Shown here: positions 10,163-62,463 of the stretch, one piece after another
Layout of the letters: each line of letters opens with the position of its first letter
Numbering within the stretch: the stretch's first letter is position 1
NCBI GenBank assembly: GCA_017475705.1
Contig: JAFVFB010000012.1
Span: forward strand, 60,525 to 124,524
Direction of reading: 5' to 3'
DNA length: 64,000 nucleotides
Source of the DNA: Alphaproteobacteria bacterium
GTDB lineage: Bacteria > Pseudomonadota > Alphaproteobacteria > RF32 > CAG-239
Translations under genes and position numbers: made by a program
Notes under the pieces: generated by a model
The model's input: only the letters and a program-made list of their open reading frames with translations
Told to the model about the DNA's origin: nothing
Databases searched by the model: none

Positions 10163-10212
10163 AAGCAAATGATAAGTACAAAACTCGGCTTATAGACCAC
10201 CTAATTTTTTTA

Positions 10213-15168: not shown

Positions 15169-16117
15169 CATACCTGATATATCATTTGTTGTTCCAATGT
15201 ACAATGAAGAAGATGTCATCGCAACATTCTTCTCGACCATGGATAAGACACTGAAAAAAATACCTCAATACACTTATGAATTTATATGCGTTAATGATGG
15301 TAGCAAAGATAAAACCCTACCAATATTAAAAGAATATGCCACTAAAGATAGGCGTATAAAAATTATCAGTTTCTCACGTAATTTTTATAAAGAGCAAGCT
15401 CTTTTTGCCGGTCTAGAGGCTTCATCAGGTCGCTGTGTTATTCCGATGGATGCAGATTTACAGGACCCTCCGGCACTAATTCTTAAATTTATAAAGAAAT
15501 GGCAAGAAGGTTATGAGGTCGTTTATGGTGTAAGAACAGAAAGAACTAAAGATACACTAATCAAGCGTATAACAGCTAACCTTTTTTATAAGATATTTAA
15601 TTTTATAGCGGATAGACCCATTCCAGCCAATACTGGAGATTACCGCTTGATGGATAGAAAAGTTGTTGATGCAATTTTACAAATTAAAGAAAATAAGCTA
15701 TTTATGAAAGGAATTTTCAGTTGGGTCGGGTTCAAATCTTGTGGTGTCGAATACCAAAGGCCCAAAAGAGCCGCTGGCAAAACGAAATTTAACTATTGGA
15801 AATTATGGAATTTTGCCCTTGATGGCATTACTGCTTCAACAACATTGCCTTTAAGAATATGGACTTATATAGGAAGCTTTATTGCTGCAATTTCTGGTCT
15901 ATATGCACTTTATATTATTGGTAGAACACTTTTTATGGGGGTATCCGTTCCTGGCTATGCCTCATTACTCGTTTGTATTTTATTTTTCGGCTCTGTACAA
16001 CTAATTGTTCTAGGTATCTTCGGAGAATACATTGGTCGAATATTTATGGAGGTCAAACGCCGTCCACGTTATATCATAGATGAAAAAATCAATTTAATAG
16101 AACATGACAAAATTTAA
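15161..16117 (+). CDS. GT2 polyprenol-phosphate glycosyltransferase (GtrB/ArnC-like)
   Basis: 318 aa with VVPMYNEE...NDGSKDKT...DADLQDP motifs. Two C-terminal TM, as in GtrB/ArnC. Confidence 0.8.
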   Translation: MNNIPDISFVVPMYNEEDVIATFFSTMDKTLKKIPQYTYEFICVNDGSKDKTLPILKEYATKDRRIKIISFSRNFYKEQALFAGLEASSGRCVIPMDADLQDPPALILKFIKKWQEGYEVVYGVRTERTKDTLIKRITANLFYKIFNFIADRPIPANTGDYRLMDRKVVDAILQIKENKLFMKGIFSWVGFKSCGVEYQRPKRAAGKTKFNYWKLWNFALDGITASTTLPLRIWTYIGSFIAAISGLYALYIIGRTLFMGVSVPGYASLLVCILFFGSVQLIVLGIFGEYIGRIFMEVKRRPRYIIDEKINLIEHDKI

Positions 16118-30244: not shown

Positions 30245-31372
30245 ATGGCAGATACAGAATTAGATAATTTCTTTTCAGCAGATTCGCAAACAAAAAAATC
30301 AACCACAGCAAAAAGTACTAAGCAAGAAGAAACCAATGATGACGATGGCTTTGATTTAGAAGATGAATTTTCCAAATTATTAAACGACTTTATTAACCAA
30401 GAAAATACCGCTCCTGTGCTACAAGATAAGTCAGATTCGGTATCAAATAGCCTGGATTCTCTGCAAACACCACAATGCCCTTTGGAATCAATGGTCACAG
30501 CTACACCAGTAGAAGAAACCTCAGCTTTAGATGATTTTGCCCAAACAGCACCAAACAATCAACAAGAAACGATGCTGGATGGTTTTGTTACAGAAAATAC
30601 CGCTGTTCAGACTGGAGCAGAACTAGATACTTTTATAACCAATGAACCTGCATCCTCAGAAATCAACGAAACAGATGGGCATTCAGGTCTAAAGCCGGAA
30701 GAACAAGAATTGGCACGTTCTTTGACCAACTTTCAAGATAGTATTTCCGCAATGGCAAACAAAAAGAACCTTAAATTGCCTAAAACAGACTATGAAGAAA
30801 CGATGTTAATGCCAAACTACAAACCGAGCGTAGGTAAAAAAATTGCTCAATATCTTTTAGACTGCTGGCCAATTATAAACAAATATGACCCTGATAATAT
30901 GAAGCGTCTAGCCCCCACGGCAACAGATGAGGAATATCTTTCTTTTGCAGAAAGCTTAAACGATACCTACATGCAGTTAGCCATAATTTCTTATGTGGAA
31001 ATCTTGATAAACATGGAAATATGCGAAGTTAGCTATGAACAGAAAAAAGCGGAAGTGCTAAAAAATCGTGCTAAAAGAGAGCTTTATGAAGAATATATGG
31101 AACTTCAAGAACGCAAAAAATTGTTTATAGAAAAACTTAAAGAAAAGAATTTTCCCATTGATGCAGAACGGCTGATTAGTAATTATTTTCGAGTCGCTCA
31201 AAAAGATCCAGATGGTTCTTTTGAGGCTCTAACCAAAAATCCTGCAACATTTTCGCCGATTCAAGTTGAAAAAATTCACCCAAAATTCTTTGGCTTAATA
31301 AAAGTAACACCTGAAGACGGAATAAAAGCAAACCAAAAAATAGGAAAGTTTATTAAAAATCTAAAAGTATAA
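30245..31372 (+). CDS. hypothetical protein with acidic disordered N-terminal half and helical C-terminal domain
   Basis: 375 aa. Strong RBS (AGGAGG). The first ~170 aa are D/E/S/T/Q-rich with no TM. First gene of the T4CP cluster. Confidence 0.5.
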   Translation: MADTELDNFFSADSQTKKSTTAKSTKQEETNDDDGFDLEDEFSKLLNDFINQENTAPVLQDKSDSVSNSLDSLQTPQCPLESMVTATPVEETSALDDFAQTAPNNQQETMLDGFVTENTAVQTGAELDTFITNEPASSEINETDGHSGLKPEEQELARSLTNFQDSISAMANKKNLKLPKTDYEETMLMPNYKPSVGKKIAQYLLDCWPIINKYDPDNMKRLAPTATDEEYLSFAESLNDTYMQLAIISYVEILINMEICEVSYEQKKAEVLKNRAKRELYEEYMELQERKKLFIEKLKEKNFPIDAERLISNYFRVAQKDPDGSFEALTKNPATFSPIQVEKIHPKFFGLIKVTPEDGIKANQKIGKFIKNLKV

Positions 31373-31403
31373 AATTTTTCATCGATTCGCATGTTTAAAG
31401 TGG

Positions 31404-31419
31404 ACAAACATTTGTTTGT
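31404..31419. promoter_or_regulatory. perfect 7-2-7 palindrome ACAAACATTTGTTTGT, candidate operator upstream of the J-like protein gene
   Basis: Read directly from the sequence. It sits just upstream of a -10-like TAATAT and the RBS AAGGAGG of the 31462 gene. Confidence 0.3.
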
Positions 31420-31461
31420 ATGCTAATATAACAGATATAAGACGACTCAAGGAGGCAAAAA

Positions 31462-33594
31462 ATGGCATGGTATGATGAAGATGCCCTCAAAAAAAGAAAA
31501 GATTTATATGAGGTACTAGAGATAGATATCAAAAATTGTGCTCGTGAAGAATATGCTAAAGAGGAAATAGAAAAACAATACCAAAAATTAAAAGTAAAAC
31601 ATAAACAAGACAGTGATGATTTGAAAGAACTTGAAGGTGCCTACAAGATATTAAGTGATGATGTTAAGCGTTCAGTTTATAATCAGATGCATAATATTAA
31701 ATTCGGCTTAGATGCTGTAAATCAAGAATTAAAAAATGATATAAATGATTTTCTTGGTAAGCCTGTTTATGATACAGGCACTCAAAAAAAACAAACAACA
31801 GATTCAAATAGTGCAGAAAATACACCGCCAAAAACTTCTCAACAAGATGAACAGGGTGCGAATAAACAACAAAAAACCCAAAGAGAGAATACCTCTCCCA
31901 ATATTGAAGAGTTCACACAGTCTTTTGACGGAGAATCAAAGGCTTATAAAGATATAGAGCTGGATATCTATGGTAATGTAAAAGAAAAAAAGAAAAAAAG
32001 TCAAAGTGCCGGTGGTAAAATTAAAGCACCGGAGCGCAAGCCTTCTAAAGGTGGCGGTGGTGGTGGTAAAACCATTATGGAAGTTTTCTGGAACGAAATT
32101 ATCGTTGCCGCTTATGAAAAGAGCTTAGATTTAGCTGTAGACTTCACATTAGATTTTGCAGATTGGGTTTTATTTAATGCTTATGACCCGCAAACTGTGC
32201 AAAAAGAAGAAGCCCAAAAGGAAAAGAAAAGTATTTGGGACTATGCGCGTGACGTTTACAAAAAATATAGCAAAGATGCAGACGGTAGCATGGAAATATT
32301 CCAAAAAGCTCATACTGAATTAATGAAAAACATAGAACTGGCAAAAAATGGCATAGCCCCGAAATGGAAAGTTTGGCCGAACGAGAAAGAGCCATCGTTC
32401 TTTAAACAAGTCGTAGAAATTGCTAAAAAAGCAGAGGAAGATCCCCATTCCCCGGAAGCGAAAAAATGGGAACGTTTTTGTTCAATGCCGGAAATTATGG
32501 AAAATTTATATGAAAAAGAGCTGCAATTAAGGAAAATGTCTATTTTCTTAGCTACAGAAGAAACACAGCTAAAAATTGCCGCATATAAACATCCATCAGA
32601 AATAACGTACAGGCTAAAAGAAATGAAAGAATTAAAGTTAGGTCCTGAAAAGAACTATGAACTGTACCAAAAAAATATGCAGCGTTTAATCACGGAATTA
32701 AGAGATAAAATCAAAGAGGATACTTCTGTAAATCGCCAGATTGGTGCCCAATTAGATGAGATGGAAAAATTAGTAAATAACAAGGATATTAAGAAAGAGT
32801 TCAATAATATCACATCTGGATTGTCCGCACACATTAAAGCAATCGGCAACATTACACCTGAGTTTACTCTATCACCCTCCATTCTAAAAAATTTAAAAGA
32901 AATAGATAAAATAGGAGGCTCAACCTCTAATATCGATAAATATAAAAAAGCAGTGAGTGCTAAGGTGATTGAAATTCAAAGCTTAGCTAAGGGTAATCAG
33001 CCTATAGATAAAGAAATAAACAAACAATTAGCAGAGATAGAAAAAGCCCTCAAAAATCCTAAAGCAACAGTAGAAGATTTAGTAAAAATAGTTGGCAAAA
33101 CAACAGCTTCAATGCGTGAAATTACGCCTCTTCGCCAAGAAATAGATGAATCAAGCCAAGCTTATTATGATCGCATGCGCAAAAATATCGATAAAATTAA
33201 AGTTATCTATGGTAGAGACCCGGAACAATGCCGTGAAAACATTAAGCAATATCTTAAAAATATTACCGAGAATATTAAGCAAGCTCAACCAGAAATAGAT
33301 AATTTTGCTCATGCCAGCCATTTAAAACGTGCGTTGATAAATACAGGGCATGCTGCATATAATTCTGTTAAAGGGCTAATGGGTAAAAAAGATCCAATAG
33401 CTGCAGATGCTATTATGGATAGGATGGAACAAAAGGCCTCAGATGGTTTCAAAAAAGCAAATTCTATAATCGATGATTTTGAAATAAATGGACGGAGATT
33501 AAGAGACTATGCTGTTGCGACCGAGACACCAAATCCATTTAAGAATAAGCAAAGCGTATTTAATGCATATAAAGATTATTCAGGGGGCCGTTAA
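31462..33594 (+). CDS. large helical protein with N-terminal degenerate J-like domain (HPD replaced by KQD)
   Basis: 710 aa. Residues ~14-75 align to the DnaJ J-domain (DLYEVLEI...EIEKQYQKLKVKHKQD...AYKILSDDVKRSVYNQ), but the HPD tripeptide is absent. Followed by a Q/K/T-rich linker and a G6 run. Confidence 0.5.
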   Translation: MAWYDEDALKKRKDLYEVLEIDIKNCAREEYAKEEIEKQYQKLKVKHKQDSDDLKELEGAYKILSDDVKRSVYNQMHNIKFGLDAVNQELKNDINDFLGKPVYDTGTQKKQTTDSNSAENTPPKTSQQDEQGANKQQKTQRENTSPNIEEFTQSFDGESKAYKDIELDIYGNVKEKKKKSQSAGGKIKAPERKPSKGGGGGGKTIMEVFWNEIIVAAYEKSLDLAVDFTLDFADWVLFNAYDPQTVQKEEAQKEKKSIWDYARDVYKKYSKDADGSMEIFQKAHTELMKNIELAKNGIAPKWKVWPNEKEPSFFKQVVEIAKKAEEDPHSPEAKKWERFCSMPEIMENLYEKELQLRKMSIFLATEETQLKIAAYKHPSEITYRLKEMKELKLGPEKNYELYQKNMQRLITELRDKIKEDTSVNRQIGAQLDEMEKLVNNKDIKKEFNNITSGLSAHIKAIGNITPEFTLSPSILKNLKEIDKIGGSTSNIDKYKKAVSAKVIEIQSLAKGNQPIDKEINKQLAEIEKALKNPKATVEDLVKIVGKTTASMREITPLRQEIDESSQAYYDRMRKNIDKIKVIYGRDPEQCRENIKQYLKNITENIKQAQPEIDNFAHASHLKRALINTGHAAYNSVKGLMGKKDPIAADAIMDRMEQKASDGFKKANSIIDDFEINGRRLRDYAVATETPNPFKNKQSVFNAYKDYSGGR

Positions 33595-33597
33595 AAT

Positions 33598-34089
33598 ATG
33601 AAAAAACTTAAAAACTTTTTCCGCTTTTGCACAATAAGCACCATAACATTGGTGCTTTTAACCATTGTAGCCAGATTTATTTTTCGCATGATATGGCATT
33701 TTGATATCTTAGATAAACACTCATATCAGCTAATGGCAGAATACTGGAATAGTGGCGGCATCTTTAATTCCTTACAAGATTATAGTCTCGGTTTAATGTT
33801 TCTGTCTTTGCCGATTATCTGGCTCTGGATAAGTTATAAAACATATAGATTTGGTTTGATGAGATTATTATCTCTTCCAATTACAAAGATATATCGGTAT
33901 TTAACGCGGCCGGAAACCTATGATGTGGAACACGTGAAAATAAAAAATCTGCGCGGCAAAGAAAAAAATATAGAGGAACTCATCGCTGAAAAGATAAAAG
34001 AAGAAAACCCTAATAGTGGCGCGGCTCATACCGTAAAAAATTTGCGAGCACAAATTTCTGCAAGAATAGGAGAAAATAAAAAACAATAA
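33598..34089 (+). CDS. small membrane protein, paralog of the N-terminal module of the next gene
   Basis: 163 aa with 2-3 TM. Shares the motif WHFDIL...YWNSGG...SLP.IWLW with the N-terminus of the 34145 ORF. Confidence 0.45.
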   Translation: MKKLKNFFRFCTISTITLVLLTIVARFIFRMIWHFDILDKHSYQLMAEYWNSGGIFNSLQDYSLGLMFLSLPIIWLWISYKTYRFGLMRLLSLPITKIYRYLTRPETYDVEHVKIKNLRGKEKNIEELIAEKIKEENPNSGAAHTVKNLRAQISARIGENKKQ

Positions 34090-34107
34090 TCACTTTTTAA
34101 CCAATCA

Positions 34108-34124
34108 TTATCTACAATAGATAA
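34108..34124. promoter_or_regulatory. perfect 7-3-7 palindrome TTATCTACAATAGATAA, candidate operator upstream of the 34145 gene
   Basis: Read directly from the sequence, in the 55-nt intergenic spacer. Confidence 0.3.
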
Positions 34125-34144
34125 TAAGAAAGTCGGAGAATAAC

Positions 34145-35437
34145 TTGAAACCATTGCTAATTATATTAAAAACTCTGATAATAGGCTATCTCTGGAGCAT
34201 CGTCTTCATAGATGGTATCAGGGTTTTGTTGTTAGTAAATTGGCATTTTGATATTTTTTTAAGAGAGCATTGGCGTTTATTAAGTGATAAATGGAATAGC
34301 GGAGCTCCGATTAGCCGCTCAGAGTTTGCATTTTTTCTAATCCTTGTTAGTTCAATACCATTATGGGTAGCCGGCTGGATAGGCTTGTGTTTAATAAAAT
34401 GGGATAGATTTTTCAAAAAGCTATTTATGTGGCCAGTGTATTTATACAAGAAATTAACATTGAAGAAAAAGCCGCCGATCGTAATAAAGAAAAAATCTGT
34501 CACAGAAGAAACAAAAACAACCTCCAAAGCCAGTGTGGCTAAAAAAGTGCCTGTCAAAAAGGTGGGTTTACCTTCAGCAACCTTAATGCAATCAAATGTT
34601 AACAACAATATGTCATCATCAATGCGGCCAACCTCAAATTATATAGCAGCAAGCAAGAAGAATCCAGAAGCACCAACGACGCATGCTTTATTTAATTTTG
34701 ATGACGATGATTTTGATTTGGATTTTGACTTAGATAAAAAAACACCTGAAAAAGAAGATTATGGCATTCCCTCTGCGCTAAAAGTAGACGAACCACAACC
34801 CAAAGAAAAAGCTAAAGATTCAGCAGATAGTATCATTTCAAATTTTGACACCAATTTCTTAGAGAACAAGCCTAAAAACAATAATCACAAAGACAACCAG
34901 TCAAAGCCGAAATCCACACCGGCTCCAGCAAGAGAATCTCACACGCCGATTTTAGATATCCTAAAACAAAAAGGGTATGACATCATTCCATCTGCAGTTA
35001 TTAAAAATACTACCATTGACTATATCGCTGTGTCCAAGCAACAACTGATCCTATGTCTGGTAGATAAAGAAATTGGCGACTGGTTAGCAGACGAGGAGAA
35101 ATTTAATGATGAAGAGCCACTATGGTTTTCAGAAAGTAGCCATAGAATATCTCCAGTACGCAAAATAGATGTTGCAAGAGATATTTTACGTACTAAGCTT
35201 ATTGCTGCAGATATGAATTTTGAAATTGTTTCTTATGTCATCATACAATCAGGCAACATCATTAACGCTGAAGATATGTTTGAAATATGGAGTGAGATGA
35301 ATATTAATGTAACCAGAATTAATCGCGGCAGCCCTAAAGAAATTCGCTTATTTTCTAAATCATTAGAAAATTGTGAAGATAAAATAGATAAAAACATATT
35401 TGAAAAACTTAAAAAACTAATTCGTAGTTTGGCGTAA
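34145..35437 (+). CDS. membrane-anchored protein: shared 2-TM N-module, K-rich disordered linker, C-terminal NERD/restriction-endonuclease-like domain (tentative)
   Basis: 430 aa. N-terminus NWHFDIFL...KWNSGAP...SIPLWVAGW is paralogous to the preceding ORF. The C-terminal ~180 aa (IDYIAVSKQQLILCLVDKEIGDW) resembles a NERD-type core. Confidence 0.45.
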   Translation: MKPLLIILKTLIIGYLWSIVFIDGIRVLLLVNWHFDIFLREHWRLLSDKWNSGAPISRSEFAFFLILVSSIPLWVAGWIGLCLIKWDRFFKKLFMWPVYLYKKLTLKKKPPIVIKKKSVTEETKTTSKASVAKKVPVKKVGLPSATLMQSNVNNNMSSSMRPTSNYIAASKKNPEAPTTHALFNFDDDDFDLDFDLDKKTPEKEDYGIPSALKVDEPQPKEKAKDSADSIISNFDTNFLENKPKNNNHKDNQSKPKSTPAPARESHTPILDILKQKGYDIIPSAVIKNTTIDYIAVSKQQLILCLVDKEIGDWLADEEKFNDEEPLWFSESSHRISPVRKIDVARDILRTKLIAADMNFEIVSYVIIQSGNIINAEDMFEIWSEMNINVTRINRGSPKEIRLFSKSLENCEDKIDKNIFEKLKKLIRSLA

Positions 35438-37629
35438 TTATTTAATAGAGGAATAAATGGTAAGAGAAAGAGGGAAAGAGTGGGAAGAATATGATAAAGC
35501 CGTCCGGTGGATGGCTACCACGTTTATCATATCTGTCGTGGTCGCAATGGTGCTGGTTTATTTGTCTCAGCCTATAGCCTATCTGGTGCAAAAAGGTGTA
35601 TCCAAAGAAAACGTTGATGTTGCAGTAAGATTTCTGAAAAAATCACTGGCAGATCCCGGATTTTTATATGATAGATATATAAGATGGTTCAAGCAAGCAA
35701 TGCGTTACAGTGGAGCTTTTAAGCCCAGCTTATGGATACCGATATTGCCATTTATAATGTTTCCACTGATATTAATTATTGGAGGCATTAAGTGTCCATA
35801 TAAATTCCAGTCCAATATTCATGGTTCTGCACATATCGCTACTTTAAGAGATATCGAAAAGATGGAACTGCTTGGCTTCGATGGATTTTGCATGGTTGTT
35901 GGCAAGTTCCAAGGTAAGATGTTGAAATTAAAAGAAACATTATCAACACTATGCTGTGCACCTCCTGGTACAGGTAAAACAGTAGGTATTGTTATTCCAA
36001 CAATTTTTAATTCTGAAGGTCTGAGTATCATTGTAAACGACCCAAAACCCGAGTTATGCTACAAAACTACGGGAGCAAGAAATAAAGTTGGTCCGGTATT
36101 TGTTATAAACTGGGGGAAAGAAGATAATCCAGAAACTGGTGAATACTATCCAAGCTGGAACCCACTTTCACCAGGGGCCTTGCCAATGCCTGGTCCAGCG
36201 CGAGATTTGTACGTAGATTCAATGTGTAATACGCTGGTAGAAGATCCCAAGGGTAATGCTGACCCGCACTGGTCAAAAACAGGTCGTAGTGCGTTGTGCG
36301 GTTTCATACATTTTATATCTTCAAAATGCGAGAGAGCTCTTGCTAATGAAAAGTTTATCCAAAAAATTTATGAAGGTTCACTAACAGCAGAAGACAAAGC
36401 AGAATTAATTAATTACTATAGTGACATGAGCATGGGTGGCCTGCGTACAAATGCCGCTCAAGCTATTTCAGATATACAAAATGATAATCTGACTATAGAA
36501 AATTATTTACCGATAGGGACATGGAATCTTCTACCGGAAAAATGGATAAATCATGAACCGTGTATGGCTATGATATTGGAATGGATAACCAGTTCACAAA
36601 TAGAGCAGGCTAATGATATTCGCCGCCGACTGGAAGAAGGTGACCAAATGGCTGCAATGGCAGACCCAATGCGAGATTTGCTAGATGCAGCAGTAGAAGA
36701 GGCGAACAATTATGGTTATTCCCGCCGCTGTGTAACGGAGCTAAGTGCCTTAAGTGCAATGCCGGATAAAGAGCGCGGTTCTGTTTTATCAACAGGTTTA
36801 ACCGGTATTGGTATATTTAAGAACTCAGCCGTCGTTGCCCGAACAAGCTTTTCTGATATCCAATTTAAAGATTTGCGAGGGATGAAAGACCCTGTCACTG
36901 GTGAATGGCGGCCAATTTCCGTATATCTTTCTGTAAATCAAACAGATGCGCAAGCCTTAAATCCTATCAGCGCAACATTCGTAGACTTGATGAGTGCTTA
37001 TTTAATTTCTAATCCACCTAATGCGGTTAATAAATCAGATGGCAAAATGGGGCCATTTCCAGTACTATTTGTGCTCGACGAGTTTCCGCAAATGCCAAAA
37101 TTAAAAGCGGTTATAGACGGTCCTGCTGTTGGTCGTGGTCAAAAGGTTGCATATTTATTGATAGGACAAGATTTAGGGCAAATTTCTGGGAAATACGGTA
37201 AGGATGACCTCGAAACAGTTATCTCAACCACGGCCTGCAAAGTTATCTTATCACAAAACAATGAACAAACCGCACAGCGTTTTTCAAAGATGATTGGTAA
37301 TAAAACAGTACAAACCACATCTTTTTCACGCAGTGAAGGAGGTATAAGCAACAAAGACTTTAATCCATTTTCTAAAAATGTAAGTTACCAATTGCAAGGT
37401 GTCTCAGCCATTAGTACCAATGACCTATTGAGTCTACCGATGCTTAAGCAAGTTGTTTTAATGCAAGGCTACATTGATACACCGATTATGGCAGATTCAC
37501 CTCGTTGGTATCTTGATAAAAAGATGAGAGAGCTGGCATCATTACCTCCATCGCCAAATGTTCCGGACTGGATTGTTGCTCAAAGAACAGATGAAAATGA
37601 AGATATACTGTCCAAACTTGGAATAGATT

Positions 37630-40564
<2,935 letters not shown>

Positions 40565-41245: not shown

Positions 41246-41287
41246 AAGGCAGTTTAATCAAGGATGATTAGCTGCCTTATTTTTTAT
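41246..41287 (+). terminator. intrinsic terminator after infC
   Basis: Long hairpin AAGGCAGTTTAATCA-AGGA-TGATTAGCTGCCTT followed by ATTTTTTAT. Confidence 0.6.
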
Positions 41288-41582
41288 ACTTTACTTTTCT
41301 TATTTTTATTTATAGAGTAAAAGCGGACAGGGTGTTCTTGTCTGGGGTGTGGAAACCTCTTCAAGGAAATAGAAGGAACGTATGATTGTCCGTCTCACAG
41401 TTGTGTTTATTTAAATACATGACTGGAAGGCGACAAAATACGCCGCTTTGAGACTCATATATAACTGCAGATGTATATGCCGTTTAGGCTAATATGTCGC
41501 ACAATCCTTGAATTGTTTCCAACTTCCAGTCGCTTTATAGCGACTTTTTCTTTGACTTAGGAGCTAAAAAAGGAAGTTGATT

Positions 41583-44500
41583 ATGAAGAAACAAAAGAAC
41601 AAGCAAGCTAAAAAAGCATCAAAATTGGCAAAGGCCGAGAACTTAAAGAAAAAACCAGCACAATTTATTACGGTTAAAAATGCCGAGGGTGATCCCGATA
41701 CAACCGCCGAAATCCTCATTCAAAACCAAATCGATTATACGCCGAAAGTATCGGTGATTATTCCAGTTTATAATGTGGAACAATACCTGCGCGAATGCTT
41801 GGATAGTGTTGTTAACCAAACATTGAAAGAGATAGAAATCATCTGCGTGGACGATGGCTCAACCGATTCTTCATTGGAAATCCTCAAAGAATACGCCGCA
41901 AAAGACAAGCGTATGACAGTTATCCGCCAGCAAAATCTCCATGCCGGTGTCGCCCGCAATGCCGGTCTATCACAAGCAAAAGGAGAATACCTCAGCTTCC
42001 TCGATTCCGACGACTTCTTCGAACTCAATATGCTAGAGGAGATTTATGACAAATCTAAGCAAAATGATGACGATATTTTTATTTATAATTATGATTTTTA
42101 TGACAATGACAAGAACTTATACAAAGAATCATATAAATATAATTCAAGGTATTTGCAACAAGAGGGGTTTTCTGCAAAAGATTATCCGAAAAATATCTAT
42201 TTTTTAGCGACACCAAATGCATGGACAAAGCTCTTCAAAAGAACCTTAATTGTAACCAACAGTATTTACTTTGAAAATTGCCCAAGTTGCAACGATATTA
42301 CTTTTGTAGATACGGCTCTTTCTGTTGCGGAAAGGATAAACGTATCAAACAATGTATATGTACATTACAGAATAAATTCAGGTATAAATATATCAAACAA
42401 CAGAGAAGTAAAAGCTTTTTCAATCATTCATGCGATGAAAAAACTAAAGTCAAATCTTGAAAGACTAAAAGTGTATAAAATATTTCGAGATAATTTTGAA
42501 AAGCAGTTAGTTGTTCGTGCAAAATCGGAGATTTTAAAAGCTGATACAGTTTTTAAAACAAAATTCTTAGCAGAATTTAAAAATATTTTTGCTGATGATT
42601 TATACAATGAACTTCTGAAAGAATTAGAGGTAAAAGTCTCAATCATTATTCCAATTTATAATGCTGAAAAATATTTACGTGAATGCTTGGATAGTGTTGT
42701 CAATCAAACTTTAAAAAATATTGAAATTATTTGTGTCAATGATTGTTCTACTGATGGTTCATTAGAAATTATAAAAGAATATGCCAGTAAAGATGGGCGT
42801 ATCATAATTGTCAATAATGATAAAAATACCGGAGCTCCAGGTGCGGTAAAAAATATTGGTATGCAGCATGCCTCAGGTGTATATATTGGTATTGTCGACT
42901 CTGATGATTATATTGATTTAAACTATTTTGAAGAGTTGTATAATGTTGCAGTAAAAAACAATGCTGATATTTCATCTATATCTAGTATTATTAAATTTTC
43001 AGGAAAAAAACAAACACCTATTATACTTGATACAAAAGGGAAAACAATACTTAGCAACCCAAAAGACAAAACCCCACTAATGAGAATATCTAGCACAAAT
43101 TCTGCACGAATATACAGAAGGGAACTACTGGAAAAATACCATCTTAGATGCTATGATAAATTTTCAACAGCAGAAGACAACTTATTTTCGATGGAAGTTA
43201 TGAGTGTGGCTAATAAAATAGCGATGGTGCCAAATATAACTTACCATTATAGGCAACGTGAAGGGAGTGTCACCGGACGAAAGAGAACCAAAGAACATTT
43301 TAATATTTTTGATATTTACCTAATGATAGATAAATTCATATCTAAAACCTTTAGCGGAGAAGAAAAAAACTTATATTTAACAGCTGTTAACGAACGGAAA
43401 AAGTTAGATTTTAAATGGTTTTTAAATTCTTTAGATATCAACTATTTACAAGAATTTAAGGAAAAACTATTAAATGTATTTCCTTTGGTATACAAACACT
43501 TGTTCTTAAATGAAATACCTATAATTTTAGCATCTGATGATAACTATGCGCCATTTATGTACACAACAATGGTATCAATTTTAGAAAATGCAAAAGAAAC
43601 AACTTATTATGACTTTTATCTTATGGTTCCATCTGCATTTTCTAAAAACAACGAAAAAACAATTTTGACCCTAAAAGATAAATACAATTGCGATATTCAA
43701 TTTTTGGATATGAAAGATGCTTTCTCGGACTTGACTATGCAAATATCGCATATTACATCGCCAACTTATTACCGTTTGCTTGCAGGAGATTTATTGCCTA
43801 AAGAATATGATAAATGTATTTATCTGGATGTTGATATCTGTGTTTGCCAAGATTTGAGCGAACTTTATAATATTGACATGGGTAATAATTATATTGCCGG
43901 AGTTGTTGCAGCAGGTTATTATTTTTCTGAAGCGGCAAACTGTAAACGATTAAATCTGCCATCAATGCGAACATATGTTAATGCCGGTGTTTTGCTGATG
44001 AATTTAAAACAAATTCGTCAAGACAGGATGACAGAGAAGTTTGTTGAATTATCTAAGAAAAATTACTCATCTCAAGACCAAGATGTTGTAAATATTGCGT
44101 GTTATGGCAAAATTATAACATTGCCACCTAAATACAATGCGATGACTACGAGGCTACAGCAAAATGACGCGCGTTTAAGAGATTTATATTCAGAAGAAGA
44201 TATTTGGAAAGCAAATAAACATCCATATATTATTCACTATGCAGATAAAAATAAACCATGGAATAGTAGCTTTGTCTATATGGAACAATACTGGTGGAAT
44301 ATTGCAAGAAAAACTCCATATATTGATTTATTTAAAATAGATGCATCATTTTATAAAACTCAGCTAGAGCAATGGTGGTATAGAGCGAAGAAAACTTCAT
44401 TAAACCTAGATAATCCTAAAACTTTTAATGAAAAAATTCAATGGATGAAACTATATGATTCGACACCGCTTAAAACGCGTTTAGCAGATAAATATCTGGT

Positions 44501-46046
44501 GCGTGACTGGGTAAAGGAAAAAATCGGTGAGGAATTTTTGATTCCGCTGTTAGGTGTTTATGATAGGTTTGAAGATATTGATTTTGACAAGCTTCCAAAT
44601 CAGTTTGTCATCAAATGCAATCATGGTAGTGCTTACAATATTATTGTTAAGGATAAATCAAAGCTGGATTTAGTAGATGCAAAAGCAAAACTTGATAAGT
44701 GGATGAATGAAGACTTTGCTTTTAAGTCGGTAGAACTTCATTATCGTGACATAGAACATAAAATCATTATTGAAAAGTATATGGATGATGGAACTGGGGA
44801 TTTAAGAGATTACAAATATACTTGCTTTAATGGAAAACCAGAGTTTATTTGGATAGACAGCGATAGACATACTAAACACAAACGTAATTTATATGACTTA
44901 AACTGGAAACAATTACCATATAAAGTTAATTCGCATTATGACACATTTCCATCACCAGATAAACCAGAACGCTTAGATGAAATGACACAACTTGCTAAGA
45001 TATTAAGCGAAGGATTTTCTTATGTTCGTGTTGATTTCTACATAATAAATGGGAAAATTTATTTCGGAGAAATGACATTTACATCGTCTAGTGGAACTGA
45101 AGATATTGTTCCTGAAAGTTTTGATAGGTATTTAGCTAAAAAGATTAAACTTCCCAAACTCGCCTACAATATTGATACCGGTGAGTATTATAAATTGCCG
45201 AAACCAAGTAAACTCGCCCCATATCTCTTCTTCCCGTATTATCTGTTCAAGGTGGCGCAGATGCGTAAGAAGGTGTTTGCGTTAACAACAGATAAAATAT
45301 TATCTGAATTTACCAAGATGCGGATAGATATTAAAAATAGCGGCACTGCTAAAAATGCTTTGTCTATCACGGCACCAAAAGCAAATATTGATACCCCAGC
45401 TTGGTTTACAAATGCAAGGGGTATCGGACAGATGGTGCAAGGCAATAACCTCAAACAAACCATAAAAATCAAAGCAATTAATGATGGAAAATTAATCTTT
45501 GATTTCCGCGGGCAAGATAAAAGAGATAAAGAAAATCAACGCATTCCGCTATGGTGCGACTATCAGTCTATTAAAATTGATGGCAAAAAGATTAATGATA
45601 AAAAAGAGCAAACATGGCACGATAAACCTTATCACTATGAAATGCCCGTAAAAGATGGGCAAGAGGTTAAAGTTGAAATCGAACAAACCTATCATCGCTA
45701 TATGGAAGGTGATCTTCGCGATACAATATTAGAGCTGTTTCCTAGTGACAAATACATTACCGAAAATATTGATAAATTAACCGCGAAAATCTTTCATTTT
45801 ATAGAATCTAAAGCATCTGCTAAAACATTAAAGCAAAAACTTACAAAAAAAGAGGCGAGCCTAAAGCTATTTAAGGTTTTGCCGATTGCCAGTTTTCGGC
45901 ATAGCGGTGGCAAAAAAGTTTGGAAGATTTTTGGCCTGCCAGTGTTCAAAAAGCGCATGACAAATAATGGAAACACCACAAAATACTACATACTAGGCAT
46001 AAATTTGCTGCAATTAAATAAAAAGACAACCGATGTCTTGCGTTAG
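41583..46046 (+). CDS. multidomain glycosyltransferase: GT2 + GT2 + GT8 + TupA-like ATP-grasp + unknown C-terminal domain
   Basis: About 1487 aa from the ATG 7 nt after the RBS AGGAAG. Two GT-A modules (VIIPVYN..DGSTD..DSDD), a GT8 module (DVDICV, HYADKNKPWN), a TupA-like ATP-grasp module (KCNHGS...) and a ~280 aa C-terminal domain. Confidence 0.8.
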   Translation: MKKQKNKQAKKASKLAKAENLKKKPAQFITVKNAEGDPDTTAEILIQNQIDYTPKVSVIIPVYNVEQYLRECLDSVVNQTLKEIEIICVDDGSTDSSLEILKEYAAKDKRMTVIRQQNLHAGVARNAGLSQAKGEYLSFLDSDDFFELNMLEEIYDKSKQNDDDIFIYNYDFYDNDKNLYKESYKYNSRYLQQEGFSAKDYPKNIYFLATPNAWTKLFKRTLIVTNSIYFENCPSCNDITFVDTALSVAERINVSNNVYVHYRINSGINISNNREVKAFSIIHAMKKLKSNLERLKVYKIFRDNFEKQLVVRAKSEILKADTVFKTKFLAEFKNIFADDLYNELLKELEVKVSIIIPIYNAEKYLRECLDSVVNQTLKNIEIICVNDCSTDGSLEIIKEYASKDGRIIIVNNDKNTGAPGAVKNIGMQHASGVYIGIVDSDDYIDLNYFEELYNVAVKNNADISSISSIIKFSGKKQTPIILDTKGKTILSNPKDKTPLMRISSTNSARIYRRELLEKYHLRCYDKFSTAEDNLFSMEVMSVANKIAMVPNITYHYRQREGSVTGRKRTKEHFNIFDIYLMIDKFISKTFSGEEKNLYLTAVNERKKLDFKWFLNSLDINYLQEFKEKLLNVFPLVYKHLFLNEIPIILASDDNYAPFMYTTMVSILENAKETTYYDFYLMVPSAFSKNNEKTILTLKDKYNCDIQFLDMKDAFSDLTMQISHITSPTYYRLLAGDLLPKEYDKCIYLDVDICVCQDLSELYNIDMGNNYIAGVVAAGYYFSEAANCKRLNLPSMRTYVNAGVLLMNLKQIRQDRMTEKFVELSKKNYSSQDQDVVNIACYGKIITLPPKYNAMTTRLQQNDARLRDLYSEEDIWKANKHPYIIHYADKNKPWNSSFVYMEQYWWNIARKTPYIDLFKIDASFYKTQLEQWWYRAKKTSLNLDNPKTFNEKIQWMKLYDSTPLKTRLADKYLVRDWVKEKIGEEFLIPLLGVYDRFEDIDFDKLPNQFVIKCNHGSAYNIIVKDKSKLDLVDAKAKLDKWMNEDFAFKSVELHYRDIEHKIIIEKYMDDGTGDLRDYKYTCFNGKPEFIWIDSDRHTKHKRNLYDLNWKQLPYKVNSHYDTFPSPDKPERLDEMTQLAKILSEGFSYVRVDFYIINGKIYFGEMTFTSSSGTEDIVPESFDRYLAKKIKLPKLAYNIDTGEYYKLPKPSKLAPYLFFPYYLFKVAQMRKKVFALTTDKILSEFTKMRIDIKNSGTAKNALSITAPKANIDTPAWFTNARGIGQMVQGNNLKQTIKIKAINDGKLIFDFRGQDKRDKENQRIPLWCDYQSIKIDGKKINDKKEQTWHDKPYHYEMPVKDGQEVKVEIEQTYHRYMEGDLRDTILELFPSDKYITENIDKLTAKIFHFIESKASAKTLKQKLTKKEASLKLFKVLPIASFRHSGGKKVWKIFGLPVFKKRMTNNGNTTKYYILGINLLQLNKKTTDVLR

Positions 46047-46050
46047 AAAC

Positions 46051-46090
46051 AAAAAAATCCGCCGATGTTTAATCGGCGGATTCCTTTTCT
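46051..46090. terminator. bidirectional intrinsic terminator between the GT gene and fba
   Basis: AATCCGCCGAT-GTTTA-ATCGGCGGATT hairpin flanked by an A-run and a T-run. Confidence 0.6.
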
Positions 46091-47966: not shown

Positions 47967-48404
47967 ATGGATAAAGAATATGACTACATCTCAACATTAA
48001 GTGCTGAAGAGAAGAGAATATTCGTTGAAAGCTTTTGCTGTATGGTTTATACAGATGGTAATGTAGCCAAAGAAGAAATAGAATTCCTCAAAGGGATTGG
48101 TAAGTTATATGGCATCACAGAACAAGAAATTGTTAGTATCCTGAAAAATATGAAAAGAGAAGTTGTAATGGAAAATATAGCCAAGATAACGGATCGTCCA
48201 AAAGCATTACAATTAGTCAAGGAATTATGCTATTTAGCCAATTCAGATACCGGTCTAGATGACAGAGAGATTGATTTTATTATTGATGTAGCAGAAACAG
48301 TTAATATTGATAGTGAAAAATTAAAGCAAATCAATAAATGGGTACTGGATAAGATAGTTCTTCAAAAAACGGGAGAAATTATTTTAGAAACAGAAGGCAA
48401 ATAA
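47967..48404 (+). CDS. TerB-like domain protein
   Basis: 145 aa. Two-repeat helical pattern (EEKRIFVESFCCMVYTDGNVAKEEIEFL... / ...LCYLANSDTGLDDREIDFI) typical of the TerB/DjlA-N-like fold. Confidence 0.5.
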   Translation: MDKEYDYISTLSAEEKRIFVESFCCMVYTDGNVAKEEIEFLKGIGKLYGITEQEIVSILKNMKREVVMENIAKITDRPKALQLVKELCYLANSDTGLDDREIDFIIDVAETVNIDSEKLKQINKWVLDKIVLQKTGEIILETEGK

Positions 48405-48410
48405 AAATCT

Positions 48411-48434
48411 AAGCGGCGTAAGCCGCTTTTTTAT
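48411..48434 (+). terminator. intrinsic terminator after the TerB-like gene
   Basis: AAGCGGC-GTA-GCCGCTT hairpin followed by TTTTTTATT. Confidence 0.55.
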
Positions 48435-48437
48435 TGC

Positions 48438-48466
48438 TTGCAAGTAATATTTTTTTGTGATATAAT
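48438..48466 (+). promoter_or_regulatory. sigma-70-type promoter (TTGCAA-17-TATAAT)
   Basis: Consensus-like -35 and -10 hexamers with 17-nt spacing. They lie ~20 nt upstream of the RBS AAGAGG and the ATG at 48486. Confidence 0.5.
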
Positions 48467-48485
48467 GCCCCGTAAGAGGTTACCA

Positions 48486-49370
48486 ATGGCAGAAGATATT
48501 AGTCGCAAAGAATTACACAATATTATAAACCGTGCAATTGCAAAATGCGGTTCCTATGGCTCATATTCATTAACGAGTGAGATAAATATCTATTGCGAAA
48601 GATATAAATACCGCCAAACAGCAAATCCCCAATTGAATATTTTTGAAGAAACAGTTGCTCAGCCACAAGAAATGTTGGAGGCAAAAAGTTTTTGTGAAGA
48701 CTTAGATGAATACAAAAAATCAATTGACTTAGATGCAAAAGAAGAAACGTTACCAGAAAGTTTTTGTCGCCGGATATACCAAAGATTAGCAGCTTATGAA
48801 CCCTATATATTTCCAGAAAATCAAGAGGTTTATAATCGGTTGCGAAAAAATATAGAGGGTGAACTTCCTGAAAATAAAGAAAAAATGATGATAGAAGCCT
48901 ATTTGTTAGACATCGAAAAAATAGAACGAGTACAAAAGGAATATGCTAAAGAAAAGAGAAAGAACAAAAAAGCATCAAAAGAATATTTAGAAAAATTGAC
49001 CTTAAAATTTTTCAAAGATATACAGCAAGATGAAATGTTAAAAGAATGCAAGGCCAGCCCAGAAAAGATGTCTTTATTTGAAAAAAGTGTTAATTTAGTA
49101 AAAGATTTACCTTTATGGAGTTTGGGACGAATAGCAAGATATGAACTAAAAGTCAATATTTATAACCAAATACAGCAAATAGCAGAAGCTTTGGGGGATA
49201 AATATAAACCAAACGCCATAACAGCACAAAATGAAGCAATACGCTTTCAAAATGCAATACAAAAAACAATAAATATTATTAGCAACCCGATTCCTCGAGA
49301 AACAAAACATACCACAATTTCAACAGAAGCCATAAATAAAATAGCACAAGAAGAATGGTTATATAAATAA
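48486..49370 (+). CDS. hypothetical helical protein
   Basis: The start at the internal Met (MAEDISRKEL) is preferred given the promoter and RBS. K/E-rich and predicted helical. No motif recognised. Confidence 0.45.
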   Translation: MAEDISRKELHNIINRAIAKCGSYGSYSLTSEINIYCERYKYRQTANPQLNIFEETVAQPQEMLEAKSFCEDLDEYKKSIDLDAKEETLPESFCRRIYQRLAAYEPYIFPENQEVYNRLRKNIEGELPENKEKMMIEAYLLDIEKIERVQKEYAKEKRKNKKASKEYLEKLTLKFFKDIQQDEMLKECKASPEKMSLFEKSVNLVKDLPLWSLGRIARYELKVNIYNQIQQIAEALGDKYKPNAITAQNEAIRFQNAIQKTINIISNPIPRETKHTTISTEAINKIAQEEWLYK

Positions 49371-60204: not shown

Positions 60205-62463
60205 CTACAAACTTGTGCCAAAGTTCAAACGAAATACCTCTGTTTCGTCATATTTTTCTTTAACAATTGGGAACCCAAAGTCGATATCAATTTTGCCCAT
60301 TGGTGAAGTCCACTCAAAACCAAAACCAACAGCGACACGAGGTTTAGAACTATAATCTATATCATTGTTATCAACCTTATCTGGTTTACCTGTTGTACCA
60401 ATATCAACAAAGGTTCTTCCACGGATACCAAGTTCGTCCAATCCCAGAGGGAATGCCAATTCAGCACCACCCCAAACCATCCAGTTGCCGCCGAGGGCAT
60501 CATTGGTATATTTATCACGGGCACTGATGCCGCCAGATTCAAATCCGCGCATTGTGTTTCCACCTAAGAAATATCTTTGGGCTAAGCGTGCATCTCTATC
60601 ACCATAACCTGTAACATAACCCCCATTAACATAAAATTTGAAGGTATAATAATCAGATAGAGTATAGAAAGTGTAAGCTTTAGCGTCAAATTTCAAATAT
60701 TTATCATCACCGCCTAAGCCGGAAATATCATTACCAAAAGACAGATAATATCCCTCACGTGGTTTCATCGTGTTATCACGTTTATCATAAACAATTGTTT
60801 GGCCGACAACAGAGTCAGTAGATTTCCCTTGTTCTCTTTGGATATATTTAGAAGCAGAGCTAACATTCTTAATTTTATCTTGCTTCAATGTATAGCGGAT
60901 ATAATGACTCAAATCATCTGTATAATTCCATCCAAACCGAACACGTCCACCATAAGTATCCATATCATAGTTACTTTCATCTTGGTAGTCTTCTGTTTGG
61001 TAGAAGAGGTCAAAACCAGCACTCAATCTTCTATTTAAGAAATAAGGCTCTGTGAAACTAAAGTTATAATCTGTCGTTCTTTGGGATTTCCCTGCACTTA
61101 AGCTAACTTGTTGCCCTTTTCCTAAGAAGTTATTTTCAGTAATGCCAGCCCTAATCAAAGCGCCATTAACAGTAGAATATCCAACACCAACATTAAAGTA
61201 ACCTGTAGATTTTTCTTCAACATTAACATTAATGTCTGCTTTGTCGTAGTCAACGCGTTCAGAGTCAATATCAACTTTACTAAAATAATTCAGCCGTTCA
61301 ACATTCCTTCTGGATTCTCTAATTTTGGAAGCATTAAATACACTGCCTTCAGAAATACGGAATTCTCTTCTGATTACTTCATCTAAAGTTCTCGTATTGC
61401 CGGTAATATTAATTCGATTAACATAAACTTTTGCATTTTCTTTAATATCAAAAATAGCAATTAACTTCCCTGTTTCTCTATCCTTTTGGATATTAGGAAC
61501 AACCTCAACAAAGACAAAACCCTTCTTAGAAAGTTCTTCTGTTAACTCATTAACTGTTTTTTCAACTTCATCAGAATTATACCAGTCACCTGTCTTAAAG
61601 GTAACATATTTATACCACTGGTCAACATCAACATCAGGCACAGAGGAACGAATTTGGATATCATCAACTTTGTAGCGGCGTCCTTCGTCAATAGTAAATG
61701 TCAAAACAAAAGAGGTCTTGTCTCTGGAAAGTTCTGCAATGGCAGATACAACAGCAAAATCAGCATATCCATGCCGGTTATAAAAACGACGGAGCAACTC
61801 TTGATCATAGTTCATTTTTTCGCGGTCAAAGTTTTCAGCACTTGAAAATAGTCGATACCAACGGCTCTCTTTGCTCATTATTTCGCCTTGCAAATCACTA
61901 CTGGTATAGTGCTTATTACCAATAAAGTTAATCGTATCAATTTTAGCTTCCGGACCTTCCTCAATTTCAAAGATTAAGTCCACGCGGTTTTCAGACTTCT
62001 TGATAATTTTTGGTTCAACCGAAACACCATAACGTCCGGCTCTTTTATAAACATCAAGGATTCTCTGGACATCTTGCTGCACTTTTGCTTTGCTAAAAAC
62101 AGAACGCGGCGCAGATTGTACTTCTGCCTCTAAAATTTTATCGTCAATCTTATCATTGCCATCAAAAGCACGTACACCAATCACCGGATTCTCTGTCACA
62201 TTAATAACAAGCTCAGAACCCTTCGTATCAAAATTAATATCACTAAACAGCCCTGTGTCATAAAGTCTCTTAAGAGCTGCATTCAGGTCTTCAGAAGAAA
62301 CCGGTTTGTTTGTATCGATTCCCGCATAAGAAAGAGCAGTTTCTCTTTCCACACGTTGTAAACCTTGAATATTTATATTTTTAATAGTCTCTTGGGCTAA
62401 TGCCTGTGAGCAGATAGCCAAACTTAATAACGAAATTCCCGCGAATTTAAACTTCATTTTCAT
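60205..62463 (-). CDS. bamA: outer membrane protein assembly factor BamA
   Basis: 752 aa. Signal peptide, POTRA repeats and a C-terminal Omp85 barrel ending in ...RLNFGTSL. Confidence 0.9.
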   Translation of the reverse strand: MKMKFKFAGISLLSLAICSQALAQETIKNINIQGLQRVERETALSYAGIDTNKPVSSEDLNAALKRLYDTGLFSDINFDTKGSELVINVTENPVIGVRAFDGNDKIDDKILEAEVQSAPRSVFSKAKVQQDVQRILDVYKRAGRYGVSVEPKIIKKSENRVDLIFEIEEGPEAKIDTINFIGNKHYTSSDLQGEIMSKESRWYRLFSSAENFDREKMNYDQELLRRFYNRHGYADFAVVSAIAELSRDKTSFVLTFTIDEGRRYKVDDIQIRSSVPDVDVDQWYKYVTFKTGDWYNSDEVEKTVNELTEELSKKGFVFVEVVPNIQKDRETGKLIAIFDIKENAKVYVNRINITGNTRTLDEVIRREFRISEGSVFNASKIRESRRNVERLNYFSKVDIDSERVDYDKADINVNVEEKSTGYFNVGVGYSTVNGALIRAGITENNFLGKGQQVSLSAGKSQRTTDYNFSFTEPYFLNRRLSAGFDLFYQTEDYQDESNYDMDTYGGRVRFGWNYTDDLSHYIRYTLKQDKIKNVSSASKYIQREQGKSTDSVVGQTIVYDKRDNTMKPREGYYLSFGNDISGLGGDDKYLKFDAKAYTFYTLSDYYTFKFYVNGGYVTGYGDRDARLAQRYFLGGNTMRGFESGGISARDKYTNDALGGNWMVWGGAELAFPLGLDELGIRGRTFVDIGTTGKPDKVDNNDIDYSSKPRVAVGFGFEWTSPMGKIDIDFGFPIVKEKYDETEVFRLNFGTSL

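Follow-up and report, generated by a model that had tools for sequence, protein, structure and literature searches.

A 1487-residue multi-module glycosyltransferase of an uncultured alphaproteobacterium as a probable surface-polysaccharide synthase

What does a single giant polypeptide make when it carries three glycosyltransferase (GT) modules and an ATP-grasp domain? The question is raised by an open reading frame (ORF) at positions 41583–46046 of a 64,000-nucleotide stretch of DNA from an uncultured alphaproteobacterium (GenBank assembly GCA_017475705.1, contig JAFVFB010000012.1, positions 60,525–124,524), referred to here as the window; positions are those of the window and features lie on the + strand unless otherwise indicated. 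The ORF stands between infC, upstream, and a class II fba gene, downstream on the opposite strand. We consider it probable that its product is a cytoplasmic, membrane-peripheral, multi-module synthase of a capsule- or O-antigen-like surface polysaccharide, built on the plan of the Campylobacter jejuni enzyme Cj1438.

The reading frame is open for 4.46 kb, from a TTG at 41577 or an ATG at 41583 to the stop codon at 46046. The ATG is preceded, at a distance of 6 nucleotides, by a GGAAG ribosome-binding site (41572–41576), and the same start is used in public gene calls; the product is therefore 1487 amino acids long, and not 1489 as first proposed. An identical 1487-residue protein is recorded on two contigs, the longest of 183.8 kb, and was deposited at NCBI as MBR2273814.1, 'MAG: glycosyltransferase [Alphaproteobacteria bacterium]', where MAG denotes a metagenome-assembled genome. 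Together, the two contigs and the deposited record argue against an assembly frameshift, the circumstance under which the ORF would have been split. The product has neither a transmembrane segment nor a signal peptide (maximum Kyte–Doolittle 19-residue mean 1.36), in keeping with the cytoplasmic location assigned to it in the preliminary description.

The protein consists of an N-terminal peptide, two GT2 modules, a GT8 module, a TupA-like ATP-grasp module and a C-terminal region of ~290 residues. Pfam profile Glycos_transf_2 (PF00535) matches two stretches (E 1e-79, 266.7 bits against a cut-off of 23.3), Glyco_transf_8 (PF01501) matches residues 647–895 (E 2e-42, 145.9 bits against 24.3; profile positions 2–251 of 253) and ATPgrasp_TupA (PF14305) matches residues 950–1189 over its full length (E 1e-63, 215.5 bits against 25; profile positions 1–241 of 241). 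All four domain assignments of the preliminary description thus pass profile searches, and the motifs that it quoted (DSDD twice, DVD and HY..KPW) are present. Both GT2 modules combine an above-threshold profile match with the nucleotide-binding strand and DXD motif of CAZy family GT2. Module a (residues 51–345; 41733–42617), of GT-A fold, reads VSVIIPVYN...DDGSTD...DSDD, with FLDSDDF at 140–146 and DSDD at 142–145; module b (residues 346–640; 42618–43502) reads VSIIIPIYN...NDCSTD...DSDD, with IVDSDDY at 437–443 and DSDD at 439–442. The retaining GT-A module of family GT8 (residues 641–925; 43503–44357) carries YLDVDICV at 747–754 (DVD 749–751) and, as HYADKNKPW at 885–893 (HY..KPW 886–893), the C-terminal H-x-x-x-x-x-KPW signature of that CAZy family. 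The TupA-like ATP-grasp module (residues 926–1195; 44358–45167), a predicted uronate amidoligase, appears to retain the lysine, glutamate and Mg-binding acidic residues of its class: K1011, E1064, D1151 and E1163 are kept in 85–99% of 121 family members and, by likeness to ATP-grasp enzymes in general, would bind ATP and Mg.

Solved structures matched by sequence place the transferase modules among enzymes of glycan assembly. The GT2 modules resemble GalT1, K4 chondroitin polymerase, TarS and TarP, with GalT1 (5hea) and chondroitin polymerase (2z86) as relatives of module a and TarS (5tze) as the relative of module b. The best solved relatives of the GT8 module are WbbM (6u4b, E 1.7e-25), which is a galactan polymerase of an ABC-transporter-dependent O-antigen pathway (PMC11231755), and LgtC (1g9r, E 6e-22). 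No solved structure was matched by sequence for the TupA or C-terminal parts.

Cj1438, in which a GT2 is fused to a proven glucuronate amidoligase, is on sequence grounds the closest CHARACTERISED relative. Cj1438 comprises a GT2 domain (residues 1–325; a UDP-GalfNAc transferase), a linker domain and a TupA-like ATP-grasp domain (residues 453–776), which uses ATP to amidate glucuronic acid (GlcA) with serinol phosphate or ethanolamine phosphate; this amidation is needed before the next glycosyl transfer (PMC11800379). ATP-dependent uronate amide formation by a TupA-like ATP-grasp has been demonstrated only for Cj1438C (PMC11800379). In BLASTP comparisons with the Cj1438 sequence from the supplement of that paper, the ATP-grasp of the window protein (945–1193) aligned with Cj1438 470–761 at 32% identity (E 9e-35), end to end, through FV(I/L)K.NH and YVRVD..(I/F)GE(M/L)TFT. 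Similarly, GT2 module a (53–256) aligned with residues 6–219 of the Cj1438 N-terminal domain at 36% identity (E 4e-33), and module b (351–588) aligned with the same domain at 35% identity (E 2e-32). The Cj1438-type pairing of an N-terminal GT2 with a C-terminal TupA domain, each homologous to its counterpart, is thus preserved. The module described earlier as an ATP-dependent, ligase-like domain is indeed an ATP-grasp, and is better described as a putative amidoligase that would modify a uronic acid of the growing chain.

Among 5.8 billion proteins searched, 3633 were homologs at E ≤ 1e-10. Nearly all of the best 120 are unnamed, 1100–2400 residues long, and carry GT2 and TupA domains. Relatives are encoded in thirteen species-representative genomes, all of them MAGs of uncultured Alphaproteobacteria, several of which are labelled as gut-derived (HGM, UMGS, goat abomasum, water-deer rectum); one homolog, P0110, comes from an Elusimicrobiota MAG. 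Mapping of modules on the best 120 homologs revealed a constant frame of an N-terminal peptide of ~50 residues, one GT2, a variable middle, TupA and the C-terminal module. Between GT2 and TupA, individual proteins have one to three further GT2 modules, one or two of GT8 type, or stretches of ~300 residues without a match, and the exact module order of the window protein recurs in ~8 of these 120. In the window protein, GT2 module a represents the constant GT2 of the frame, and GT2 module b and the GT8 module are variable cassettes. The N-terminal peptide (residues 1–50; 41583–41732) comprises a lysine-rich tract, noted already in the preliminary description and containing 12 Lys or Arg within residues 1–35, and a conserved ITVKNAEGDPDTTAEILIQN motif; it is 86–90% identical to that of P0097, P0038, P0001 and P0005, and nearly identical among relatives with different downstream architecture.

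Sequence identity within the frame changes abruptly. Against P0001, the closest relative, the window protein is 88–95% identical from the N-terminus through the GT8 module, 61% identical in TupA and 57% identical in the C-terminal module. In TupA it is closer to P0038 and P0006 (82–83% identity), although the GT modules of these two proteins match its own at only 34–60%. The breakpoint lies at 44358, the boundary between GT8 and TupA. As identity jumps at module limits, module boundaries have served as recombination points, and comparison with these relatives identifies the window protein as a recombinant mosaic.

Many relatives run past the C-terminal module into 250–400 residues of repetitive sequence whose coiled-coil-like character was judged by eye and from precomputed apolipoprotein-repeat matches (PF01442) in four relatives, rather than with a coiled-coil predictor. 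In P0017 this extension ends in an FkbM methyltransferase (E 6e-15). Other endings are a class-I-methyltransferase-like domain with the motif ILEMGLGQ, a pair of phosphoribosyltransferase-like and HAD-like domains (both assignments from sub-threshold Pfam matches) and DUF1796. The ILEMGLGQ domain occupies the C-terminal ~220 residues of P0003, P0005, P0025, P0036, P0038, P0043, P0050, P0083 and P0110; its sub-threshold Pfam matches are to the GXM glucuronoxylan methyltransferase family and spermine synthase, and it may be an unannotated chain-capping methyltransferase. A layout of polymerase, coiled-coil ruler and terminator is known from ABC-transporter-dependent O-antigen systems (PMC11231755). 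The window protein lacks the ~585-residue extension of P0001, and ends 113 residues after a β-sandwich, with no repetitive helical stretch and no extra catalytic domain.

This β-sandwich belongs to the C-terminal part, which had been described as uncharacterised; neither Pfam nor NCBIfam has a match for residues ~1196–1487. An AlphaFold model of residues 1190–1487, computed from a 37-sequence alignment (mean predicted local distance difference test (pLDDT) score 84.7), contains a long helix at ~1217–1243, a β-sandwich at ~1246–1369, helices at 1375–1431 and a low-confidence tail. The long helix (model residues 28–54, pLDDT above 90) forms part of an aromatic and then basic segment (LAPYLFFPYYLFKVAQMRKK..., residues ~1210–1243; 45210–45311) that starts with the aromatic stretch PYLFFPYYLF; the counterpart of this stretch is strongly hydrophobic in some relatives (the tails of P0008, P0010 and P0013), and this helix after the ATP-grasp is a candidate membrane-interface helix. 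The β-sandwich fold class of the C-terminal module is seen again in a separate AlphaFold model of the module (residues 1241–1374; 45303–45704), which has CBM35-like topology, a pLDDT of 96.8 and a predicted template modelling (pTM) score of 0.89. The β-sandwich is followed by a helical segment (residues 1375–1431; model residues 186–242; 45705–45875) and a basic tail (residues 1432–1487; 45876–46043) of low structural confidence, with 11 Lys or Arg and one Asp or Glu. The tail carries repeated x-Y/W-x-I/L-x-G-h-x-h motifs (KVWKIFGLPVF, KYYILGINLL). The same tail motif forms the C-terminal end of P0037, P0054, P0059 and P0082–87, and elsewhere lies before the coiled-coil extension.

When 1.84 billion representatives were searched with a profile of the β-sandwich region, 1085 clusters matched, of which 869 reached E ≤ 1e-10. 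One complete copy of the domain was counted in 149 proteins, two in 40 and three in 15, and the module can also accompany a single GT2 or DUF6270, or occur where no other domain is recognised. From its copy number and varied partners, it is an autonomous module of polysaccharide enzymes, separate from the ATP-grasp. Its best matches in the PDB are CBM35 carbohydrate-binding modules, two of them with bound uronic acids, at a probability of 0.94–0.97, TM-scores of 0.38–0.46 and E values of ~0.03 that are not significant; the superpositions have root-mean-square deviations of 6–7 Å and 11–15% identity. A glycan-binding role is what these matches would suggest.

The loci of relatives point in the same direction as the family architecture. 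In ~15 loci, the giant gene is the last of an operon, 10–30 nucleotides after the preceding gene, in the order GT2 (336 residues), RgpF (sometimes two copies), GT2 (430 residues) and giant gene. RgpF elongates rhamnan in an ABC-transporter-dependent pathway (PMC9574508). Locus L018 also encodes UDP-glucose dehydrogenase (Ugd), a source of UDP-GlcA, and UDP-galactopyranose mutase (Glf); Glf is likewise found in L004 and L013. In L018 the genes run GT2–Ugd–RgpF–RgpF/GT2–Glf–giant gene. Directly 5′ of the giant gene, a conserved domain of ~150 residues with no Pfam match was observed in L015 (9526–9978), L018 (8420–8866), L022 (395–877) and ~14 other loci, either fused to the C-terminus of the 430-residue GT2 or as a free-standing ORF; it is absent from the window.

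It is proposed that the three GT-A modules, two inverting GT2 and one retaining GT8, would each add one sugar of the repeat to a lipid-linked chain growing at the inner face of the membrane, with a uronic acid among the sugars added. The ATP-grasp module would activate the C6 carboxylate of this uronic acid with ATP and condense it with an amine, giving a uronamide during chain building; as in Cj1438, the uronic acid would be amidated before the next transfer. A probable role of the β-sandwich is to bind the acidic glycan as it grows, or to serve as a spacer; the basic tails at both termini and the aromatic helix may keep the enzyme at the membrane or attach it to partner proteins. An unlinked transporter would serve for export. 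A polymer is favoured as product because relatives carry ruler and terminal-domain extensions and sit in GT2–RgpF–GT2 operons.

Several observations weigh against this proposal. The window protein itself has neither the coiled coil nor a terminal domain, so that the argument for a polymerase is carried by its relatives. The likeness of the β-sandwich to CBM35 is below significance. In NCBIfam, neither the whole protein nor any single module has an equivalog-level match (the best, PRK10073 and TuaG, are far under their cut-offs), and consequently no donor or acceptor specificity can be transferred. Within the 64-kb window there is no transporter (Wzm/Wzt, KpsMT) or initiating transferase, and none of the operon partners RgpF, GT2-336, GT2-430, Ugd or Glf; Ugd was found beside only one relative, that in L018. 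The ~10 kb around each of the relatives' loci likewise showed no ABC-2 transporter and no gene for Wzx, Wzy or Kps, and the export route is therefore deduced from enzyme architecture only. Correspondingly, no ABC2_membrane gene was found in the window or in loci L014–L031, and none of the Cj1438-type setting (a kps locus, KpsMT export, UDP-GlcA supply, amine-donor enzymes) lies within the window.

The same absences give weight to an alternative in which each transferase and the amidoligase acts only once, so that a short oligosaccharide is made, such as an extension of the core of lipopolysaccharide (LPS), an extension of lipooligosaccharide (LOS) or a polymer cap. The window protein has no coiled coil, capping domain or adjacent transporter; a Gtr-type periplasmic glucosylation pair and LpxC are encoded in the window, which indicates that the organism makes LPS, a possible acceptor; and the GT8 enzymes LgtC and LPS 3-α-galactosyltransferase act on core or LOS. 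Set against this are relatives of the same frame that bear ruler and terminal-domain extensions, which are sensible only for polymers, the polymerising nature of the enzymes that contain the homologous Cj1438 modules, and the activity of the best GT8 structural relative, WbbM, as a polymerase. The window sequence by itself accommodates both polymerising and once-per-chain action, and the extensions of the relatives favour polymers. We regard single-pass synthesis as unlikely, although it is the most probable of the alternatives. The assembly line for a short, defined glycan suggested in the preliminary description thus stands as a single-polypeptide assembly line; a short or defined product is not favoured by the operons and extensions of the relatives.

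How the synthase gene is expressed is a separate question raised by the interval between infC and the ORF, which had been described as a terminator. The terminator hairpin of infC is present (AAGGCAGC...GCTGCCTT and a T-run; 41246–41285), as read from the sequence, its loop being too long for a simple terminator scan. The interval also holds a conserved structured element of ~230 nucleotides with a second terminator, a candidate cis-regulatory 5′ leader RNA (41320–41550) recognised by folding and conservation. Its multi-helix fold is closed by a long-range stem of ~17 bp, and its terminator hairpin (41528–41545, with a U-run to 41550) lies ~30 nucleotides 5′ of the ATG. The minimum free energy is −84.3 kcal/mol, against −58.6 ± 4.6 for shuffled sequences (z = −5.6).

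The leader is ~80% identical in DNA sequence to positions 3574–3827 of locus L007, which lie directly upstream of a family member there. That member is a reduced, stand-alone protein of 704 residues (N-terminal peptide, GT2, GT8 and tail), with ~45% identity to the window protein. The gene upstream of the L007 leader encodes an MsbA-like ABC exporter, and not infC; as the upstream genes differ between the two loci, the leader travels with the glycosyltransferase gene. The consensus fold has 48 predicted pairs, and both copies retain all 48. Three changes are double-sided and compensatory, two of them in the 17-bp closing stem, the 3′ arm of which abuts the terminator; 58 of 500 shuffles reach the observed value of compensation, as two sequences give this control no power. 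The leader structure is thus plausible from sequence comparison.

The U-run and the ATG lie too close together for a promoter to fit between them, so transcription of the synthase gene must pass the leader terminator. The most economical reading of these sequences is that the leader may be a cis-acting attenuator or riboswitch-like element. No Rfam family reached its threshold in the infC–ORF interval; the window leader matched sRNA-Xcc1 (RF02221) at 31.6 bits, below the gathering score of 53, and the L007 copy gave no match to this family at E ≤ 1. Two exact-block scans of JGI metagenomes returned no further copies, and an nhmmer profile of the leader run over 31 loci returned only the two known ones. 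A leader peptide was considered and rejected, as L007 does not preserve the 10-codon ORF at 41383.

The window copy is atypical for its family, being stand-alone, without coiled coil and terminal domain, mosaic, and placed behind a structured leader. Such a gene might be a decaying or orphaned remnant, split from its operon by rearrangement and non-functional after loss of its terminal extension, given that the GT2–RgpF–GT2 partners seen beside ~15 relatives and the ~585-residue extension of P0001 are both missing. Against decay, no stop codon interrupts the 4.46-kb frame and all catalytic motifs are intact; the gene also has its own ribosome-binding site, lies behind the conserved leader and is closed by a strong terminator. 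Full-length P0037, P0054, P0059 and P0082–87 have the same short tail ending, and L007 provides a second stand-alone family member behind the same leader. No remnant coding sequence follows the stop codon, and only the intrinsic terminator (46056–46082; an 11-bp stem with 6 G–C pairs, from a terminator scan) lies before fba. We therefore hold the remnant explanation to be very unlikely.

The gene order around the synthase ORF is that of a VirD4-type coupling protein, a membrane ORF, ligA (− strand), infC, the synthase ORF, fba (− strand), tRNA-Ser, a TerB protein, an ORF and glgP (− strand). The genes rpmI and rplT, which the preliminary description expected after infC, are absent from the whole window by tblastn with the Escherichia coli proteins as queries. 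As also stated there, no exporter, flippase or polymerase gene adjoins the synthase gene. Positions 56–64 kb of the window lie outside the annotation, a look-up of the encoding contig for the ORF at 60205–62463 having given no record. LpxC and the Gtr-type pair are the only other glycan genes in the window, and among possible paralogs of the modules only the Gtr-like GT2 at 15161–16117 was matched. The Gtr-type glucosylation pair (13552–16117, + strand), a Glucos_trans_II membrane protein and a GT2 of 318 residues, is encoded right after recN and near LpxC and BamD; its presence indicates that the organism makes and decorates an outer-membrane glycan. A bacterial class A RNase P RNA (9816–10208, + strand; 274.5 bits) lies upstream of lpxC. 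On the other side of the synthase gene, at 47967–49370 (+ strand) between tRNA-Ser(GCU) and glgP, a TerB-domain protein of 145 residues is followed by an ORF of 310 residues (294 in the public call) with no Pfam match.

A lone VirD4/TraG-type coupling protein of type IV secretion is encoded at 35457–37676 (+ strand), within 30245–38448. It is preceded by ORFs of 375, 710, 163 and 430 residues with no Pfam match, of which the 710-residue ORF has only a sub-threshold DnaJ match (18.8 bits against a cut-off of 27.8), and is followed by an overlapping membrane ORF of 272 residues; no further component of a type IV secretion system was recognised at 30245–38448. This coupling protein gene 4 kb upstream, the strongly basic C-terminal tail and the occurrence of GT-A and GT8-like folds in some bacterial toxins speak for a secreted effector or protein glycosyltransferase with a host or bacterial protein as target, an explanation still less probable than decay and rejected on gene context and homology, since ligA and infC stand between the two genes, the tail motif is internal in most relatives, these relatives sit in polysaccharide operons with RgpF, Ugd and Glf, and every characterised homologous module acts on glycans. 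The host-target and protein-glycosylation options of the preliminary description consequently find no support: the homologous modules are those of C. jejuni capsule enzymes, and the relatives belong to polysaccharide operons.

Having weighed these alternatives, we return to the surface-polysaccharide synthase. All of its enzyme types, and the fusion of GT2 with a TupA amidoligase, are already known. New are the joining of five parts in one polypeptide, a large family of modular proteins in uncultured gut Alphaproteobacteria, evidence that its cassettes have been shuffled, a repeatable β-sandwich that lacks annotation, and the candidate leader RNA. A bolder proposal, which we put forward tentatively and consider doubtful as a whole, would join these into an undescribed, hypervariable, single-polypeptide glycan-synthase system of such bacteria. 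A constant scaffold of N-terminal peptide, GT2, uronate amidoligase and a new cytoplasmic, uronic-acid-binding β-sandwich 'stalk', in one to three or more copies, would take interchangeable transferase cassettes by recombination and thereby diversify surface antigens, and stand-alone copies would be switched by a new riboswitch-like or attenuator leader RNA.

To our knowledge, gut Alphaproteobacteria of this kind come only from metagenomes, and it is their surface glycans that host immunity and phages would encounter. From this family it can be seen how such bacteria might vary a surface polymer, by swapping transferase cassettes inside one giant enzyme. The same enzyme would amidate acidic sugars and so alter surface charge. 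As its modules are homologous to tractable Campylobacter enzymes, they could serve the chemoenzymatic synthesis of amidated uronic-acid glycans. The β-sandwich module and the leader RNA are, furthermore, two concrete features that lie outside current domain and RNA libraries.

Among known systems, the CBM35 modules 4qb2 and 2w47, whose ligands are glucuronic or unsaturated galacturonic acid, are similar to the β-sandwich in size and jelly-roll topology. CBM35 modules are extracellular and attached to glycoside hydrolases, whereas the β-sandwich is predicted to be cytoplasmic, is attached to synthases and has no sequence-profile match to them. The capsule enzymes KfoC/K4CP, the Escherichia coli K4 chondroitin polymerase, and Pasteurella heparosan synthase likewise place tandem GT-A modules in one chain, and build a uronic-acid-containing polymer; glycosaminoglycan polymerase structures match the GT2 modules at E 2e-28 (2z86) and E 2e-12 (8vh7). 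In these comparisons only the nucleotide-binding halves align, and those enzymes contain no GT8, ATP-grasp or β-sandwich.

The O-antigen proteins WbdA/WbdD, WbbB, WbbM and Klebsiella pneumoniae ORF6-O7 also carry several GT modules per polypeptide, one per linkage, and WbbM has a GT8 module homologous to the one in the window protein. The wider family shares with WbdD, WbbB and ORF6-O7 a long repetitive helical stretch and an additional domain at the end, and a CBM-like domain, unexplained, has also been reported in ORF6-O7. Unlike these polymerase and terminator proteins, the window protein has no coiled coil or terminal domain, and no wzm/wzt genes are linked to it or to the relatives' loci that were examined; conversely, the O-antigen systems have no amidoligase module.

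Cj1438, of the HS:2 capsule in strain NCTC 11168, and its HS:19 counterpart HS19.11 provide the closest comparison. The window protein is twice as long as Cj1438, with an extra GT2 and a GT8 inserted between the domains of the frame and a C-terminal region of ~290 residues that includes the β-sandwich; its gene lies outside a kps-type capsule locus, and its host is an uncultured gut alphaproteobacterium. In common with both capsule enzymes, it has a GT2 at the N-terminus and a TupA-like ATP-grasp towards the C-terminus. Like Cj1438, whose amidoligase has as its substrate a uronic acid in the growing chain, it would be a cytoplasmic, multi-domain enzyme of surface-polysaccharide synthesis.

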